Assembly: GCF_964213995.1 (NCBI RefSeq)
Contig: NC_135810.1
Location: 12,152,001-12,216,000 of the forward strand
DNA from: Mustelus asterias
Taxonomy: Eukaryota
Reading direction: 5' to 3'
Length of the DNA: 64,000 nucleotides
The notes under the pieces were generated by a model. It did not search any database, was not told the origin of the DNA, and saw only the letters and a list, made by a program, of their open reading frames with translations. Position 1 is the first letter of the stretch. Each line of letters starts with the position of its first letter. The position numbers were made by a program, and so were the translations under genes. This document shows positions 8,548 to 63,320 of the stretch, piece after piece.

Positions 8548-8842
8548 GTAAGTGCTTAGACCAAGGTGAAGAAAATGTTTTGGTGTGACATTAATTTTGA
8601 GTAAAATCCGGCCAGCAAATCTCATTGACAAACTGGTTTAAAAAAAACTTCTTCTCAAGTGACTGATTTCTACGCATTTCTTAAAGTACAATTCATTCAT
8701 CTACGTATAATTGATCTTGGATATATAGGTTTTTAAGTTCACCAGTGCATGCCAAATATAGATACTGGGGAGAAAATTAAAAGATGTAATTCATTTTTTC
8801 AGATTTAGATCACCAGTGGATAGTTTGAATATTCAACCTTTT

Positions 8843-9540
8843 TTAATGATTTGATTTATTATTGTCACATGTATTAACATACAGTGAAAAGTATTGTTTC
8901 TTGCGCGCTATACAGACAAAACATACCGTTCATAGGGAAGAAAACGAGAGAGTGCAGAATGTAGTGTTACAGTCATAACTAGGGTGTACGGAAAGATCAA
9001 CTTAATGCAGGGTAAGTCCATTCAAAAGTCTGACAGCAGCAGGGAAGAAACCTTTCTTGAGTCGGTTATTACGTGACCTCAGACTTTTGTATCTTTTTCC
9101 CGACGGAAGAACGTGGAAGAGAGAATGTCCGGAGTGCGTGGGGTCCTTAATTATGCTGGCTGCTTTGCTGAGGATGGGAGGCTGGTTTGCGTGATGGATT
9201 GGGCGACATTTTGTAGTTCCTTGCAGTCATGGCAGAGCTTTGATACAACCAGAAAGACTGCTTTCTGTGGTACATCTGTAAAAGTTGGTGAGAGCCGTAG
9301 CTGACATGGCAAATTTCCTTAGTCTTCTGAGAAAGTAGAGGCGTTGGTGGGCTTTCTTAACTATAGTGTTGGCGTGGGGGGACCAGGACAGGTTGTTGGT
9401 GATCCAGACACCTAAAAACTTGAAGCTCTCGACCCTTTCTACTTCGTCCCCGTTGACGTAGACAGGGGCATGTTCTCCTTTACGCTTCCTGAAGTCGATG
9501 ACAATCTCCTTCGTTTTGTTGACATTGAGGGAGAGATTCC
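8843..9540 (-). mobile_element. Rex1/Babar-like LINE, 5'-truncated
   Basis: Close homology to 24905-26178 and 62477-63320; tail TGTGACAATAATAAATCAAATC. Confidence 0.8.
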
Positions 9541-24564: not shown

Positions 24565-27500
24565 ATAGCAAGCTGAAAGGCTTTGTATCTTAATGCATGA
24601 AGCAATCAGAACAAGGTAGACAAACTGATGGCGCAAATCACGGTAAATGGATATGATCTCATGACATGGTTAAAAGGCGATCAAAACTGGGAACTTAATA
24701 TTCAGGGATAGATCATTAAGACAGGAGGGAATGAAAAGGTGGTGGGGTAGCAGCACTGTTAATGAGATGAAATTAGGACCGTTGTGAGCAATGATCTAGA
24801 CTCGGATGATGCATAGTCCATTTGGGTGGAAGTAAAAAAACAGCAAGGGAAAGAAGACATTGGTAGTGGTATCTAGACTCCCAAACAGTAGCCACACTCT
24901 AGGATTTTGATTTTATTTTGATTTGATTTATTATTGTCACATGTATTAACATACAGTGAAAAGTATTGTTTCTTGCGCGCTACACAGACAAAACATACCA
25001 TTCATAGAGAAGGAAACGAGAGAGTGCAGAATGTAGTGTTACAGTCATAGCTAGAGTGTAGAGAAAGATCAACTTAATGCAAGGTAAGTCCATTCAAAAG
25101 TCTGACAGCAGCAGGGAAGAAGCTGTTCTTGAGTCAGTTGGTACATGACCTCAGACTTTTGTATCTTTTTCCTGAAGGAAGAAGGTGGAAGAGAGAATGT
25201 CCGGGGTGCGTGGGGTCCTTAATTATGCTGGCTGCTTTGTTGAGGCAGCGGGAAGTGTAGACAGAGTCAATGGATGGGAGGCTGGTTTGCATGATGAATT
25301 GGGCTATATTCACGATCTTTTGTAGTTCCTTGTGGTCTTGGGCAGAGTAGGAGCTATACCAAGCTGTGATACAACCAGAAAGAATGCTTTCTATGGTGCA
25401 TCTGTAAAAGTTGGTGAGAGTCGTAGCTGACATGCCAAATTTCCTTAGTCTTCTGAGAAAGCAGAGGCGTTGGTGGGCTTTCTTAACTGTAGTGTCGGCA
25501 TGGGGGTGTCCAGGAGAGGTTGTTGGTGATCTGAACACCTAAAAACTTGAAGCTCTCGACGCTTTCTACTTCGTCCCCTTTGATGTAGACAGGAGCATGT
25601 TCTCCTTTACTGAAATCGATGACAATCTCCTTCATTTTGTTGACATTAAGGGAGAGATTATTGTTGCCGCACCAGTTCACCAGATTCTTTGTCTCATTCC
25701 TGTACTCTGTCTCGTCACTGTTTGAGATCCGACCCACGACGGTGGTGTCGTCAACAAACTTGAAAATCAAATTGGAGGGGAATTTGGCCGCACAGTCACA
25801 GGTGTATAAGGAGTATAGTAGGAGGCTGAGAACACAGCCTTGTGGGGCACCGGTGTTGAGGATGATCATGGAGGAGGTGTTGTTGCCTATTCTTACTGAT
25901 TATGGTCTGAGAGATAGGAAGTTCAGGATCCAGTTGCAGAGGGAGGTGCCAAGACCCAAGCCACGGAGTTTGGAGATGAGTTTCATGGGAATAATAGTGT
26001 TGAAGGCTGGGCTGTAGTCAATAAATAGGAGTCTGACATAGGTGTCCTTGTTATCTAGGTGTTCCAGGGTTGAGTGCAGGGCCAGGGAAATGGCGGTAGG
26101 CAAACTATAGTGGATCCAGGTGGTCCAGGAAGCTGGAATTGATTCGTGCCATGACTAACCTTTTGAAGCACTTCATAAGGAAAGTGTATAAATCAACAAA
26201 TAATAGGAGTATGTAAAAGGGATGGAGTAATAATAATGGGTAACTTTAATTTTCATATTGATAGGGTTAATCAGATTGGAACGGTTAGCTATGGCATAAT
26301 TCAGAGAGAGCATTAAGGATAGTTTCCTAAAGCAATATGTCATGGAGCCAACAAGGGAACTGGCTATTTTAGATCTGGGAATAAATGACCGAGCAGAGTT
26401 AACATGGCTTCATGAAAGGGAAATCCTGTCTAATTTAGAGTTTTTTGAGGTAGTCTCGACCAGAATGGATAGAGGGGAACCAGTAAATGTATTGTATGTG
26501 GACTTCCAGAAGGTGTTCAACAAGGTACTTCACAAAAGGTTAAGTCATAAGAGCCCATGGTGTTGGAGGTAGTATATTGGCATGGATAGATAATTGGCTA
26601 CTGGGCAAGAAACAGCAAGTGGAGATAAGGGGTTGTTTTTCAGGTTGGTGACCAGTGAGGTTCCACAGATCAGTGTTGGGACCGCAACTGTAATGACTTA
26701 GAGGAAGGAAGCGAATGTACTTTAGTTAAATTTGCAGACATGACAAAAATAAGTGGAAAGTTGCGCGACGGATACTAGCAGTTTACAAAGAAATATTGAT
26801 AGGTTAAGTAAGTGGGCATAAAGTTGGCAAATGGAGTATAATGTGGAAAATGTGAAGTTCATTTTGGATGGGAGAACAAAAGAGTAGTATTTAAATGGAG
26901 AAAAACTGCAAAAAGCTGTAACACAAAGGGACTTGGTGGGGTGGGGGGGCAGTACTTGTGCATGCACACAGGTAATCAGGAAGGTTAATGGAACGGTGGC
27001 CCTTATTTTAAGGGGGTTGGAGTATAAGAGTAGGGAAGTCTTGCTGCAACTGTACAAGATACTGGAATACTAAGAGCAGTTTGCTCCTGTCACTTGAGGA
27101 AAGATATTGCATTGGAGGCAGTTCAGAGAAGATTCACTCGGATGATCCCTGGTAAGGAGGGATTATCTTATGAGCAAAGGTTAAACAGGTTGGGACTCTA
27201 CTCATTGGAATTTAGAAGAATGAGAGGTGATCTCATTGAAACATAAGATTCTTAAGGAGCTTTATAGGGTAAATGCTGAGAGCATGTTTCCCTTAATGGA
27301 CAAGTCTAAGACCAGAGGGCATGGTCTCAGAATAAAGGGATGCCAAATTTTAAGACTCAGATGAGGAGGAATTTCTTCTGAGGGTTCAGAGTCTTTGGGA
27401 GTCCTTGCCACAGAGAGCTGTGGAGGCAGAGTCCTTGTGTTTGTTTAAGGCTTAGATAGATTCTTGATCAGTAAGGGAATCAAGGGCATGAGGAATGTTG

Positions 27501-29259: not shown

Positions 29260-29914
29260 GGAATAATCAAGTTTGTAAACCACAAACATGATGTTTTCAG
29301 GTAGTAGAGGTGGACAGTGTTATGAGGCTACATATACTATTATTCCCAGGGAGAATGGAGAAGATAGGGTAAATTCTTGAATCAATTGTACCTGGAGACT
29401 ACCGTACGTGATTTTACACAAATTGTATGTTCTCCACTCACTGCATTTTGCTGAAGAAATCTGCTTTACACAGTTCAAATAAATTGTTTTCTGCAATTCA
29501 TATTGTAAGTCCCACTCAACTCCATCTCATTGACTAACAGTGGTGTTGTCAATAGTCTGGTATCGAGATGAAAATAAATGGATAGAATGTGGGATTTAAA
29601 GCTCAACTCGGGGTTAAACACTATTGAGGTTCTGCACCACTATGCTCAGCTTAAAGGAATGACGGAGGATATAAAGGCAAGAGTAGTTTTCATGGTGGGA
29701 AGTTGAAAATAACTTTGATCTTCCTAGTGTTATAGCTCATTTATGACAAAATCAAGTTCGGACCAACAATCTAAACGGTAACTAAACTGAGCTTTATTTG
29801 GTGTTTGTCTTAAAGGGACAAGGTTTTAACTGAGCATTGTAAAATAGTCTATCAAACAAATTACACCCCTTCCCTTTAAACATCATGTTTGTGGTTTACA
29901 AACTTGATTATTCC
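29260..29914. repeat. Perfect 37-bp inverted repeat pair (29260-29296 and 29878-29914)
   Basis: GGAATAATCAAGTTTGTAAACCACAAACATGATGTTT and its exact reverse complement. Confidence 0.9.
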
Positions 29915-30708
29915 AACCTTTGCAGGCCTTCTAGAAATTTCAACCTTCAACAGGTACTTGGGTCCCGTGTACAAGAATCTAACCCGGTATACAAAAGGAA
30001 TGACAATTTTTTTTAAATTGCAAACTCTTGAGCCTCATGTATGATTTTTTTCTCTTCCTGGTTTGTTCCACTCACCTCTGCATGTTATTCTACAACCAAG
30101 CCTGACCACCCCTGACTGCACCCTACAGTTCATGAGAAGGGAGCTATCCTCTTTAAATTAGCTGGGGTTGGAAGCTGCTTCTATATTGCAAAATAACTGC
30201 TCTATTTTGGATGCAGAAGTGACAGTTGGTCAGAAAACAATGCTCCAACAAGCAATTGGAATCTATTGCTTTGGAAACTTTATTGAAAGTTAAATGTTAG
30301 AAGTTTAATTCTTCTCCCAACTGCAATCATTGAAAATAATGTTGAGAAGTGGATGCACTAGCAATGCCACATTTATTATCCATCCTTATTTGCAATAAAT
30401 GCAATGAGTAAAGCATAAGTGTAGGTCAGGAGTCACATAGGGAAGATCAAGGAGAAAACCATGTTTTATGACTGGCAATACTCAGTTATTTTATGTTAGT
30501 GCTGGCTCTCAAATCACCAGCTTTAATAGATTCACTTTCCAAATTTTGTCAAGATGGTATCTGAACAGAACCTGGCTTGTTGGTTGGGTCCCTGACCTAC
30601 TGGCTACCATACCCTGATGTGGAGATGCCGGCGTTGGACTGGGGTAAACACAGTAAGAGTTTTAACAACAACAGGTTAAAGTCCAACAGGTTTATTTGGT
30701 AGCAAATG

Positions 30709-30745
30709 CCATTAGCTTTCGGAGCGCTGCTCCTTCGTCAGATGG
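30709..30745 (-). ncRNA. Minimal type I hammerhead ribozyme motif with intact core
   Basis: CCAU-CUGACGA-A-GGAGC(AGC)GCUCC-GAA-AGCU-A-AUGG: stem I, core, stem II, palindromic stem III. Confidence 0.75.
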
Positions 30746-30770
30746 AATGGATATCTGGCAGATATTCATT

Positions 30771-30807
30771 CCATCTGACAAAGGAGCAGCACTCCGAAAG
30801 CTAATGG
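30771..30807 (+). ncRNA. Mutated hammerhead motif (G8 to A, stem II mismatch)
   Basis: CCAT-CTGACAA-A-GGAGCAGCACTCC-GAA-AGCT-A-ATGG; two CG to CA changes relative to the minus-strand copy. Confidence 0.6.
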
Positions 30808-32194
30808 CATTTACTACCAAATGTTGGACTTTAACCTGGTGCTGTTAAAATTCTTACTGTGTTTACCATACCCTGTCCATAATGATTGTTCTCACAGGAA
30901 TGAAGGCACACTGAGTATTAATGTAACTGAAAACAACACGTTTACACAAATTGTAGCAGGCAGGAAAGGTCGCTAGGCATGGACTGGGGTATGATATTCA
31001 GAAGTGGGTGCTTGACAGCCTTGCTGATGAAGGGGTGAAGGATGCAGATGCCAGGATTAGAAGAGATACAAGACTAGCAAACTCAGAGCTGGATGAGATT
31101 CCAAATTTGGGAGGGTAAAAGTTGTGGATGACTTGTGAATCAGGATTTTGAATTCAACGCACTGACAAACAAGGAGCAATTGGTCAAGGTAGAGGTATTG
31201 GCAGATTTGGACAGGATATCAGTGATTGCCCCTTTTACTATGATTGTTTTGGAGTTTATAGTGAGGAGTGTTGGAAAAGTTCAAACTGATGACAACAAAG
31301 GCTTATGCAGTAAGAGTGACTAGTGCCACACAGGATGTGTGGTTCGAATGCCAAACAGCACAAGATTGCACACTGAGAAATGGGTTCAGAAATCACCAAA
31401 GTTTCTTTCCAGGGGTCAGTTTTTGAAGACCTAGAGATAAGGAATTTATGAGAATTTGTAGAAAATTAACATCTCTGCTTTATAGCCGAAGCACTGTACA
31501 GCCAATGAAGTACCTTTGAAGTCTAGTCATTATAACTTAGGAAGTATAATATGTGTGTGTGTGTTCGGAAAGCTAAGGTTATCATGTATGCAAATTGAGA
31601 TTCCCCCAAGCTACAGGATTATCTAAACCAGTAAATGTAGAAACAGCATATTTGAGTAGTCTGAAGTGTTCCACAGCCAGAGAGAGATTGTTCCTGTTGG
31701 GATATTTTTTCTAATACAAAATGATCAGAGATCTTGCCCTGCACTTGCAAACCAAGTCCCACTCTCCCTCCCCAGACAACAACTATTGTGGCTGGGAAAT
31801 TGGCTGAGACAGATCTACATCCAGGTGGCAATTCATACAATCCTTTAATTTGTGTACTCCACCCCCACCTATAAACTACCACAAATGTTTGGAAAACTTT
31901 TCAGACTGCATACTGAAGTACTACACTACTAAAGGAAAACAAAGACATTTTGTGAAAGAATGATTAAAGTCAGTTTTCATTGCTATTTTAACAAATTGAT
32001 TTTTCCACATATAGTATTTTTCAAAGGAGAAACAAGTGGAAAACTGGGCTTGAACTTGAGCCAAATGCTCCGCTTACATTGTCGAACATTAAGTATTGAG
32101 AGACAGTTGAAACTCTGCTTTTAGTAAATAATACTTTTGAAGTGTGTCCAGCACTAGCTTTTGATCAATGACTTTAGCCATCAAGGGACTGACA

Positions 32195-32945
32195 ATGTCA
32201 GAGAGATATACAGCATGGAAACAGGTCCATGCTGTCCTAAACTGAACTAGTCCCATTTGGCTGTCTTTAGCCAATATCCCTCTAAACCTGTCCTATCCAT
32301 GTACCTGTCCAAATGTCTTTTAAATGTGATTGACCTGCCTCTGGCACCTCATTCCACCTTCAGTGTGAGAAGTTGCTCTAGTTTTGGACTCCCCTACCGA
32401 CTATTCATCTTATCTATGCCCCTCATGATTTTATAAACCTTTGTAAGGTCACCCCTCATCCTTCTATGTTCCAGGGACAAAAGTCCCAGCCTATCCAGTC
32501 TCTCCTTATAATTTAAGTCTTCCAGTCCCAGTAACATCCTTGTAAAATCCAAAGATGTGCGAGTTAGGTTGATTGGCCTTGTTAAATTAACCCTAGTGTC
32601 AGGGGGATTAACAGGGTAAATATGAGTGGTTATGTGAATAGGGCCTAGGTGGAATTGTAGTCGATGCAGACTCGATGGGCCGAATGGCCTCCTTCTGCAC
32701 GGTAGGGATTCTATGATTCTAAATCTTTTTTTGTGCCCTTTCCAGTTTAATAACATCCTTCCTATAGCAAGGTGACCTGAATTGTATGCAATGCTCCAAA
32801 TGTGGACTTACCAATGTCTAGTACAGTTGTAACATATTGTCCCAACTCCTGTACTCAATACTCTGACCGATGAAGAAAAGTGCCAAACACTTTACCACCC
32901 TGTCCACCTGTGATGCCACTTTGAAGGAACTATGTACCTGCACTA
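32195..32945 (-). mobile_element. CR1 LINE 3' fragment with an inserted HE1-like SINE 3' half (~32548-32720, +)
   Basis: FTRMLLGLEDLNYKERLDRLGLLSLEHRRMRGDLTKVYKIMRGIDK, a CR1 C-terminal motif. Confidence 0.8.
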
Positions 32946-33250: not shown

Positions 33251-33306
33251 ATATAGTCTTGAATTAGTTTTAAAAATACAAAGTGATGTATAAAAAAAGT
33301 CAGCAT

Positions 33307-33312
33307 TTTATT
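33307..33312 (-). terminator. Candidate DIS3 polyadenylation signal
   Basis: AATAAA on the minus strand ~160 nt after the stop codon. Confidence 0.55.
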
Positions 33313-33470
33313 CAAAAAAGATGGCATTTCTCTTATAAAAATGTGTAAATCATACAAATGATTTTCCATATTATCCACATATAATTATCTCTGCTTAAAA
33401 CAGACATTTCACACTAAATCAGCTAGAACAAATACTAGCCAAAGTAATAGTCGAACAGAGTGGGACTTTT

Positions 33471-60790: not shown

Positions 60791-61020
60791 CCTTTCTCCC
60801 CATCATTTCCCCCCAAGCGTGCAAAAATACATTTTTAAAAAGCGGGAAAACCAGCTCAAATTGGTCAAAAGACCTAGTTTTTTCTTAAATCAGGAAGACT
60901 GGAGTCCCATTAAGGTTTACAAGCCCATTTCGGATAACTTTTACTGGTATCCCTTAAGTCAGATAGGTTTTACTCGTATCACTTAAGTTTTGGACCATTT
61001 TGGATAAGTTTTCCTGGTAT

Positions 61021-61346
61021 TCCCTACAGTGCAGAAGGAGGCCATTCGCCACATTGAATCTGCACCGACAACAATCCCACCCAGGCCCTATCTCCACAAC
61101 CCCACACATTTACCAAGGCGAATCCCTCTAACCTACACATTCTGGGACACTAAGGGGCAATTTAGCATAGCCAATCAACCTAAGCTGCACATCTTTGGAG
61201 TGTGGGAGGAAACCGGAGCACCCGGAGGAAACCCACACAAAGGGAGAATGTGCAAACTCCACACAGACAGTGACCCTAGCCGGGAATCGAACCCAGGTCC
61301 CTGGAGCTGTGAGGTAGCAGTACTAACCACTGTGCTACCATGCAGC
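61021..61346 (-). mobile_element. HE1-like V-SINE in the left palindrome arm
   Basis: Head, V-domain and tail A. Confidence 0.88.
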
Positions 61347-61627
61347 CCAGGTTCCTTAGGTTTTAGACCATTTCAGTTAAGTTTTACCAGTATGCCTTAA
61401 GCTTTAGACCATTCCGGATAGATTTTACCATGATTCCTAAAGTTTTAGCCCATTTTGGATGCATTCTACCAGTATTCCTTAAACCTAAAACTTAAGGAAT
61501 ACTGGTAAAATGCATCCAAAATGGTCTAAAACTTTAGGAATCACGGTAAAATCTATCCGGAATGGTCTAAAGCTTAAGGCATACTGGTAAAACTTAACTG
61601 AAATGGTCTAAAACCTAAGGAACCTGG

Positions 61628-61960
61628 GCTGCATGGTAGCACAGTGGTTAGTACTGCTACCTCACAGCTTCAGGGAGGGACCTGGGTTCGATTCCCGGCT
61701 TGGGTCACTGTCTGTGTGGAGTTTGTACATTCTCCCTTTGTCTGCGTGGGTTTCCTCCAGGTGCTCTGGTTTCCTCCCACACTCCAAAGATGTGCAGCTT
61801 AGGTTGATTGGCTATGCTAAATTGCCCCTTAGTGTCCCAGAATGTGTAGGTTAGAGGGATTCGCCTTGGTAAATGTGTGGGGTTGTGGAGATAGGGCCTG
61901 AGTGGGATTGTTGTCGGTGCAGATTCAATGTGGCGAATGGCCTCCTTCTGCACTGTAGGG
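61628..61960 (+). mobile_element. HE1-like V-SINE in the right arm (inverted duplicate of 61021-61346)
   Basis: Shares flanking satellite sequence and private variants with the left copy. Confidence 0.88.
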
Positions 61961-62476
61961 ATTTCATGAATACCAGGAAAACTTATCCAAAATGGTCCAA
62001 AACTTAAGTGATACGAGTAAAACCTATCCAAAATGGTCTAAGACATAAACGATACAAGTAAAATTTATCCAAAATGGTCTTTAGGGGAAAGAGGTAAACC
62101 CATCCTAAATGGTTTAAAACTTACTTCTTTCCCCTAAGACCATTTTGGATAAATTTTACTTGTATCGTTTATGTCTTAGACCATTTTGGATAGGTTTTAC
62201 TAGTATCGCTTAAGTTTTGGACCATTTTGGATACGTTTTACCAATATGCCTTAAGTTATAGACCATTTCAGGTAAGTTTTACTGGCATCCCTTAAGTTTT
62301 GCTGCCCTCCCTGAGAAGATAATAGACGATAGCCAGAAAAATGTTGTTGAATTGGATCAGCTATGCTCTTATTGAATGGCGGAGCAGGCTCACAGTGTGA
62401 AATGGATGCTGTTAATTCATATTGTTGCATGTATGGCCCCTTTTGACAGCTTATCTCAACAAACAGCATGGCATTA

Positions 62477-63320
62477 TGATGATACCACCGCAGTGGGTTG
62501 GATCTCAAACAACGATGAAACAGAGTACAGAAAGGGAAAGAGAATCTGGTGAAAAAAATGCAACGACAATAATCTCTCCCACAATGTCAATACGATGAAG
62601 GAGATGGTCATCGACTTCAGGAAGCGTAGTGGAGAACAGGCCCCTGTTTACATCAACAGGGATGAAGTAGAAATGGCCAGGAGAGCTTCAAGTTTCTAGG
62701 TGTCCAGATCACCAACAATTTGTCCTGGTCCCTCCGTGCTGATGCCATCATTAAGAAGCCCACCAATGCCTCTACTTTCTCAGAAGGCTTAGGAAATTCG
62801 GCATGTCCACTGTGCCTCTCACCAATTTTTACAGATGCACCACAGAAAGCATCCTTTCCGGATGTATCACAGCTTGGTATGGCTCCTGCTCCAACCAAGA
62901 CCGCAGGAAACCACAAAAGATTTAAACGAAGTCCAGTCCATCACACAAACCAGCCTCCCATCCATTGACTCTGTCTACACTTCCCGCTGCCTCAGAAAAG
63001 CAGCCAGCATAATCAAGAATCCCAGATATACTCCTTTTCACCTTCTTCTGTCGGGAAAAAGATACTAAAGTCTGAGGTCATGTACCAACCGACTCGAGAA
63101 CAGCTTCTTCCCTGCTGCCATCAGACTTTTGAATGGACCTACCTTATATTAAGTTGATCTTTCTCTACATACTAGCTATGACTGTAACACTACATTCTAC
63201 ACTCTCTCCTTTCCTTCAACCCTATCTACTCTATGAATGGTAGGCTTTGTATAGCGCACAAGAAATAATACTTTTCACTGTGTATCATTACATGTGACAA
63301 TAAATCAAATCAAAAAAAGA
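62477..63320 (+). mobile_element. Rex1/Babar-like LINE, 5'-truncated
   Basis: Homologous to 24905-25750; TQTSLPSIDSVYTSRCLRKAASIIK; tail CAATAAATCAAATCAAAAAAA. Confidence 0.82.

Follow-up and report, generated by a model that had tools for sequence, protein, structure and literature searches.

A hammerhead-bearing palindrome between BORA and DIS3 of Mustelus asterias as a truncated, head-to-head Penelope-like insertion

The convergent genes BORA (plus strand, with the Pfam domain BORA_N) and DIS3 (minus strand) of Mustelus asterias are separated by a region that contains a palindromic insert with two opposed hammerhead motifs. This arrangement raised the question of how such a structure came about and whether its hammerheads are likely to act where they now lie. 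The insert spans positions 30605 to 30875 of the window, by which we mean the whole 64,000-nucleotide stretch analysed. On the plus strand, it is bounded by two 12-bp copies of a target-site duplication (TSD) at 30605-30616, whose last base is shared with the element, and at 30864-30875. Arm 1 (30616-30757, minus strand) represents the last 142 nt of an element's pLTR, tail included. It meets arm 2 (30758-30867, plus strand) head to head at 30757-30758, where the arms end at most 1 nt apart on the template; arm 2 is inverted and tail-less and stops 26-27 nt before the tail end. The original prediction had described a discrete insert between convergent genes with inverted arms, a 3-nt loop and a flanking duplication, and the repeat search, the fold and an empty site all bear this out. 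In the repeat search, 30643-30757 and 30759-30867 were 93-94% complementary; arm 2 carries six substitutions and one 6-bp deletion and overlaps the TSD by its final 4 nt. At the left, 26-27 bp (30616-30642, minus strand), overlooked previously, have no inverted partner: They are the 3' extension called the Penelope tail, also seen in family copies, and here they occur on arm 1 only. Folding of the minus strand yields a hairpin of -181.5 kcal/mol whose loop is 3 nt long; its z-score is -24.8, and none of 200 shuffles did as well. A contig from organism B, about 96% identical to the window (X4 record 11), joins 30604 directly to 30864. Because this contig shows the empty site, the 12-bp repeat is a genuine TSD, and the organism B lineage lacks the 259-bp insertion.

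The minus strand was said to hold a complete type I hammerhead core with a palindromic AGCU stem III, and its sequence reads exactly so. From 30745 to 30709 we find a 4-bp stem I, an intact core, an extra A after A9, a 5-bp stem II and AGCU, with the predicted cut between 30713 and 30712. The extra nucleotide at 9/10.1, the G10.1-C11.1 pair and the palindromic stem III complete the features of a minimal, dimer-type hammerhead, the class to which the motif had been attributed. The plus copy (30771-30807) falls short of this set through the loss of G8 (G8>A at 30780), which was already recognized, and carries a further G>A at 30791 that breaks stem II and had gone unmentioned. An Rfam scan of the insert, put forward earlier as a check on the hammerhead, matched no hammerhead family and returned only sub-threshold hairpin matches of microRNA type; in the microRNA precursor test no Rfam family reached its gathering score (best 54 bits against a threshold of 100). 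Covariation in stems I and II, whose absence had been listed among the refuting conditions, was seen among family copies. The core is intact in 174 of 190 sufficiently long family arms. Among these 174 arms, the first pair of stem I is C-G in 101 and U-A in 71, as counts of copies rather than of independent events, and the third pair of stem II is A-U in 82, G-U in 54 and G-C in 38, again as copy counts that possibly reflect few events; N7 and H17 vary as well. Such covariation would fit a genuine ribozyme in the parent element.

We traced this parent in the species' own 3.68-Gb assembly. The insert itself gave 4,353 candidates, of which the best 40 were scored, and exact matches numbered 9,604 for a 33-nt hammerhead stretch and 30,552 for a 42-nt tail stretch. 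Among 30 hammerhead-anchored loci, the longer copies L048, L050 and L056 extend upstream into an endonuclease frame. The endonuclease protein in turn had 73,595 candidates in the genome, with open frames of up to 939 aa among the best 150. Sixteen chosen regions contained pLTR-ORF-pLTR copies with the ATG directly behind the tail, as well as head-to-head pairs of kilobase length in which a single arm bears the tail. The pLTR-ORF-pLTR partial tandem is present in L072, L073, L074 and L213; the ORF of full-length copies is about 892 aa long, and in L072 and L074 Pfam places RVT_1 above its cut-off (E 5e-9 and 4e-10). For the ORF's C-terminus, the nearest Atlas clusters are GIY-YIG (score 0.96; PF01541 on 31-34% of members). 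By reading, we recognized cysteines inside the GIY-YIG motif together with the R, H, E and N residues, and a CX4CX2C linker before the endonuclease that meets the CX2-5CxxC definition of Neptune/Nematis given in PMC8557442. Pfam did not detect GIY-YIG in the ORF, and its endonuclease and N-terminal pieces gave nothing significant; a PDB sequence search with the ORF had 0 matches, and a single-sequence fold of the C-terminus reached a pLDDT of only 32. The full-length copy L213 has a 3' end 97% identical to arm 1, and its ORF survives as frameshifted pieces of 88-95% identity. No match in the genome was obtained for an upstream extension that had been guessed for the subfamily; the true upstream sequence came from the longer copies and L213. 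The suspected Penelope-like origin is therefore right, as both arms match the 3' end of full-length RT + GIY-YIG copies. Judged by sequence, the insert consists of two 3' ends, both 5'-truncated, of a Penelope-like element (PLE) with RT and GIY-YIG, placed head to head, and the element is of the Neptune/Nematis type, as assigned by linker and endonuclease motifs rather than by a tree.

From its sequences, this family looks recently active. L072, L073 and L074 are full-length copies with unbroken ORFs of about 892 aa, and L072 and L073 (G000:C10:119.506-119.530 Mb), which are nearly identical to each other, point in opposite directions at a distance of about 16 kb. A young subfamily (L091, L099, L102, L117, L148, L154, L155 and L161) carries an insertion of about 60-80 nt near the ORF stop, some 350 nt from the tail end.

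The arrangement of arms was examined in 90 of 100 listed matches to the tail stretch, all from the first 9 Mb of contig C1, with 3 close neighbours and the last 7 left out. Arm extents were read by hand from BLAST alignments against one real reference copy, nested second insertions were handled apart, and the tail-anchored sample favours young copies. An inverted partner was present in 73 of these 90 copies and absent in 17, two of which run beyond the retrieved DNA. Wherever the end of the partner arm was visible (69 of 69), it was tail-less and fell 19-48 nt short, with a median of 34.

TSDs were recovered at 84 sites (56 of 63 tail-anchored copies and 28 of 30 best matches); 63 measured 11-13 bp, with a family mode of 12-13 bp. 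Once the empty sites were rebuilt, a TG-N16-CA motif centred on the TSD appeared in 55 of 84, or 52 of 80 without near-duplicates, while spacings of 10-15 and 17-22 gave 1-11 sites and the background was 2.8%. A second set of 32 new sites, which are 102 minus those already used, had the motif in 24, with 0-4 sites at other spacings and a background of 3.0%. Altogether, 79 of 116 sites carry the motif against a background of 3%, and the full motif is absent in 37; a half-site-only count gives 115 of 116, by a criterion too permissive to carry meaning. In 50 and 45 of the 79 cases, the respective TSD edge falls 2 nt inside its half-site, and CA is followed by G in 102 of 158 half-sites. The site in the window fits: The left half-site CTG (30600-30602, plus strand) and the right half-site CAT (30878-30880, plus strand) both lie 2 nt outside the TSD and are 16 nt apart in the empty site. 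To judge from these sites, the symmetric motif likely reflects a two-sided cut by the endonuclease of the family. Furthermore, the tailed arm reads as cDNA immediately behind the left TSD, which would imply 3' overhangs of about 12 nt. In the published literature searched, Repbase, Dfam and supplements being outside its scope, we found no palindromic target motif for a PLE; target preferences in the published passages concern AT-rich DNA, ATT or microsatellites. Elsewhere in the window, many contigs join a SINE-type position, 32716-32721, to the family tail, which suggests an insertion hot spot within the SINE that is hit repeatedly. L172 shares this SINE target, which fits TG-N16-CA.

Taken as a whole, we consider it highly probable that the insert is a 5'-truncated head-to-head Penelope-like insertion, likely made by cutting both strands at TG-N16-CA and priming at both ends, and that its hammerheads are likely inert. 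The arm identity to full-length 3' ends, the one-sided tail, the 12-bp TSD with its empty site, the target motif and the variable centre are read directly from the DNA, and the four steps of insertion that we propose draw on junction statistics. First, the protein, probably as a dimer, would nick each strand about 2 nt 5' of CA(G) and leave the overhangs of about 12 nt. Second, each overhang would pair over 1-2 nt and prime, one at the tail end by the ORF start and the other some 34 nt upstream; junction overlaps of at least 1 nt were found both at tail-less ends (36 of 48) and at tail ends (30 of 48). Third, both cDNAs would stop early, here 142 nt from the tail end, and often at almost the same template position. 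Fourth, the 3' ends of the cDNAs would be joined and the gaps filled, giving the palindrome and the TSD. The inserted copy would afterwards decay neutrally, and a read-through transcript of it would form a hairpin of about 110 bp instead of a ribozyme. LINE-1 twin priming offers a parallel, in which both target nicks prime cDNA and an inversion inside the TSD results. There, each piece is copied from a different part of the RNA; here, a palindrome results because both pieces copy the same 3' end.

The strongest competitor keeps the same element and lets the palindrome form through self-priming of a cDNA or antisense RNA that folds over and is then copied (Arkhipova et al. 2013, PMC3846280). 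Arm lengths are indeed coupled: The two arms agree within 5 nt in 25 of 73 copies, where 3.5 were expected and 20,000 shuffles reached 15 at most, with a Spearman coefficient of 0.84; in long copies, they agree within 20 nt in 7 of 28 against 1.9 expected. Equal arm lengths and turns at natural hairpins would fit fold-back priming as well as two-sided priming, and some turns fall on self-complementary stretches (L113, L117 and L161). The hammerhead variant of the subfamily is the same in both arms in 24 of 27 copies, so that templates are not drawn at random, which counts against our explanation, as do the 17 copies without an inverted partner and the 37 sites without the full motif. Yet a copy cannot exceed its template, and in 27 copies the tail-less arm is the longer one by more than 10 nt, as against 12 copies in which it is the shorter (p = 0.024). 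Nor could the copying of a tail-less arm add a tail, the junction in the window has no obvious seed, and in 3 of 27 copies the arms belong to different variants. Since the tail-less arm is often the longer one and these mixed pairs exist, two priming events fit better than arm-from-arm copying. We thus regard fold-back as an unlikely origin of the insert, although it may account for some copies. As individual cases, the turning points of L117 and L161, both at 622 nt, and of L113 at 161 nt are recurrent or hairpin-centred and make these copies candidates for fold-back priming. L126, L145 and L174 are inverted insertions whose arms differ in the stem II variant, suggesting that two templates may have served in one event.

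To return to two-sided priming, the target motif and the arm coupling together suggest that a dimer would prime from both sides of the target, mostly on one RNA or one tandem transcript. A more specific version, whose chances we rate as evenly balanced, is a two-fold symmetric dimer complex that would read TG-N16-CA, cut it to leave 3' overhangs of about 12 nt, start its RTs at the two sites bounding the tail, usually on one RNA, and stop them together. If true, this scheme alone would account for why the copy is inverted, why only one side has a tail, how long the TSD is and why arm lengths are coupled; it would also provide a PLE endonuclease with a sequence-specific target, of which the literature searched yielded no example.

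Several of these features have precedents in the published descriptions we consulted. An inverted 5'-truncated copy and a 30-40-bp tail are known in PLEs (PMC8557442, PMC3846280), and opposed minimal hammerheads 100-700 bp apart in truncated PLEs were already noted by Cervera and de la Pena (2014, PMC4209133). Neptune/Nematis EN+ PLEs share with the window family an inverted truncated copy and a tail at one end (Craig et al. 2021, PMC8557442; PMC3846280). However, their targets in these accounts are microsatellites or AT-rich, whereas the window family prefers the bipartite palindromic TG-N16-CA, and inverted forms dominate in it (73 of 90). With the minimal hammerhead of metazoan PLEs, as set out in PMC4209133, the motif shares a short stem I, the extra nucleotide at 9/10.1, G10.1-C11.1, the palindromic 15.2-16.2 and opposed pairs in truncated copies, and nothing in that account differs substantially. 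Another comparable system is the Poseidon element PAc of Anolis (Frangieh et al. 2024, PMC11167929), in which, as found or proposed here, two RT start sites near the ORF start bound the tail, both target strands are cut and extended, a dimer is predicted and the hammerhead lies in the pLTR. Unlike the window family, the PAc protein preferred AT-rich ATT sites in vitro and used both start sites on both strands, while the arms here always differ in start site, a contrast that counts against our explanation; moreover, the PAc ORF starts inside the hammerhead, whereas the ATG of the window family lies about 100 nt behind the predicted cut (PMC11167929).

What the inserted copy does now is a separate matter. 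A stem of about 110 bp that is nearly perfect could serve, on DIS3 or BORA read-through RNA, as the hairpin source of endogenous siRNA for the whole family, which would be a consequence compatible with two-sided priming rather than another origin. By analogy with transgenic Drosophila, where siRNAs matched inverted Penelope regions (PMC3681739), dsRNA or siRNA from the hairpin is plausible. Nevertheless, we think such a role for this copy improbable: Thousands of similar hairpins in the genome leave the locus without special standing, and spliced-looking DIS3 and BORA contigs stop short of the insert, which is a weak hint as the runs are not recorded as RNA. Specifically, such BORA contigs end at or before 29882, and X3, X8 and X9 contigs break at the boundary of the last DIS3 exon and reach no further than 33291-33322, weakly hinting at the DIS3 mRNA end there. 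X3 contigs on both flanks of the insert have a depth of 2.8-6.4 against 91.7 on the last DIS3 exon, in a strandless run not recorded as RNA.

Other repeats in the window were noted in passing. In the likely BORA 3' UTR, a 37-bp perfect inverted repeat (29260-29296 and 29878-29914) encloses a segment that runs the other way round in contigs of X8 (a further sample of organism A), X9 and X4 (organism B). Either an assembly error or a polymorphic inversion is therefore present in the window at 29260-29914. Two SINE-type copies, inverted relative to each other, lie in a DIS3 intron at 60921-62301 (about 61021-61347 and 61627-61971), where short repeats separate and flank them. A different LINE-type RT fragment is present in three decayed copies, at 8838-9538, 24911-25753 and 62477-63319, which are 76-85% alike.

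The insert had been proposed to be a non-coding ribozyme mini-element rather than a one-off rearrangement. The second half of this proposal stands; the family has over 30,000 exact tail matches. The first, a non-autonomous 250-bp palindrome amplified as a unit, is already largely refuted and in our view hardly credible. Its appeal is that the best 40 of the 4,353 matches (39 besides the window's own) span nearly the whole 250 bp at 88-93%, and that both arms measure 125-160 nt, as in the window, in 11 of 73 inverted copies. Those near-full-length matches, however, were picked by similarity, and the 30 that were aligned have many different centres, while the unselected tail-bearing arms range from 56 to 1,504 nt. 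Exact genome matches number 6 for the centre of the window copy and 10,421 for the subfamily arm, two counts from which mutated copies, the window's own among the latter, are missing, and an autonomous element stands behind the arms. To judge from these copies, inverted, truncated insertions form a length continuum in which the 250-bp form is one member and not a replicating unit. A MITE-like fixed non-autonomous element was also considered and rejected, as the copies have neither uniform length nor a fixed internal junction. Non-LTR retrozymes, described in a preprint (Li et al. 2026, 10.64898/2026.07.22.740005), are likewise PLE-derived and non-coding with a type I hammerhead, but they are head-to-tail tandems with hammerheads on the same strand, whereas the insert is a head-to-head pair of variable length. 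This identity was rejected too: The window copy is one inverted pair only and has no head-to-tail units with at least two same-strand hammerheads, a point that also speaks against the mini-element.

As for the hammerheads, cleavage at this locus is unlikely, because the window holds no same-strand dimer partner and, in the predicted folds, the hairpin wins by about 67 kcal/mol. No further copy of the Penelope-like family lies within the 64-kb window, and on the minus strand of this copy the hammerhead-containing fold is worse than the hairpin by that amount, which agrees with the earlier expectation that the long hairpin would compete with ribozyme folding. In the schistosome case of PMC4209133, a minimal hammerhead had no activity as a monomer and low activity as a dimer. 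The dimer requirement is also stated in a review (PMC6765202, citing Lunse et al.), and hammerhead cleavage was dispensable for insertion in vitro (PMC11167929). A pair of opposed hammerheads arises as a matter of course once both arms exceed about 125 nt, as in 43 of 73 inverted copies. Arms that end at the hammerhead cut would reveal that template RNA is cleaved in vivo; of 163 arms, 14 have their end 0-5 nt inside the cut and 11 in the next 10 nt, and other clusters are equally large. The hammerheads here are likely passive passengers of a copied terminal repeat. Least credible of all is the idea that the minus hammerhead was co-opted to cut DIS3 read-through RNA: It does lie on the DIS3 strand, with an intact core and a motif that covaries in the family, and the first AATAAA after the DIS3 stop (33312) is about 2.55 kb away, close to the roughly 2.5 kb first estimated, but an intact core is the family norm, the required dimer partner is missing from the window, the hairpin is favoured with its complementary arm transcribed first on the DIS3 strand, monomers were inactive in the case tested in PMC4209133, and the insertion is absent in the closely similar organism B.

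In conclusion, the flagged insert is real, was correctly described and is an ordinary product of a known class of retroelement with thousands of copies. Its inverted architecture and opposed hammerheads are already in print, and the TG-N16-CA target and the coupled arm lengths are what we did not find there; these two are solid side results of the family analysis. The origin of inverted repeats and tails in PLEs is described as unresolved in the accounts of PMC8557442 and PMC11167929. With its intact ORFs, its tens of thousands of junctions and a defined target for which nick positions are predicted, this family makes the insertion mechanism of PLEs testable in vitro and by genome-wide counting.
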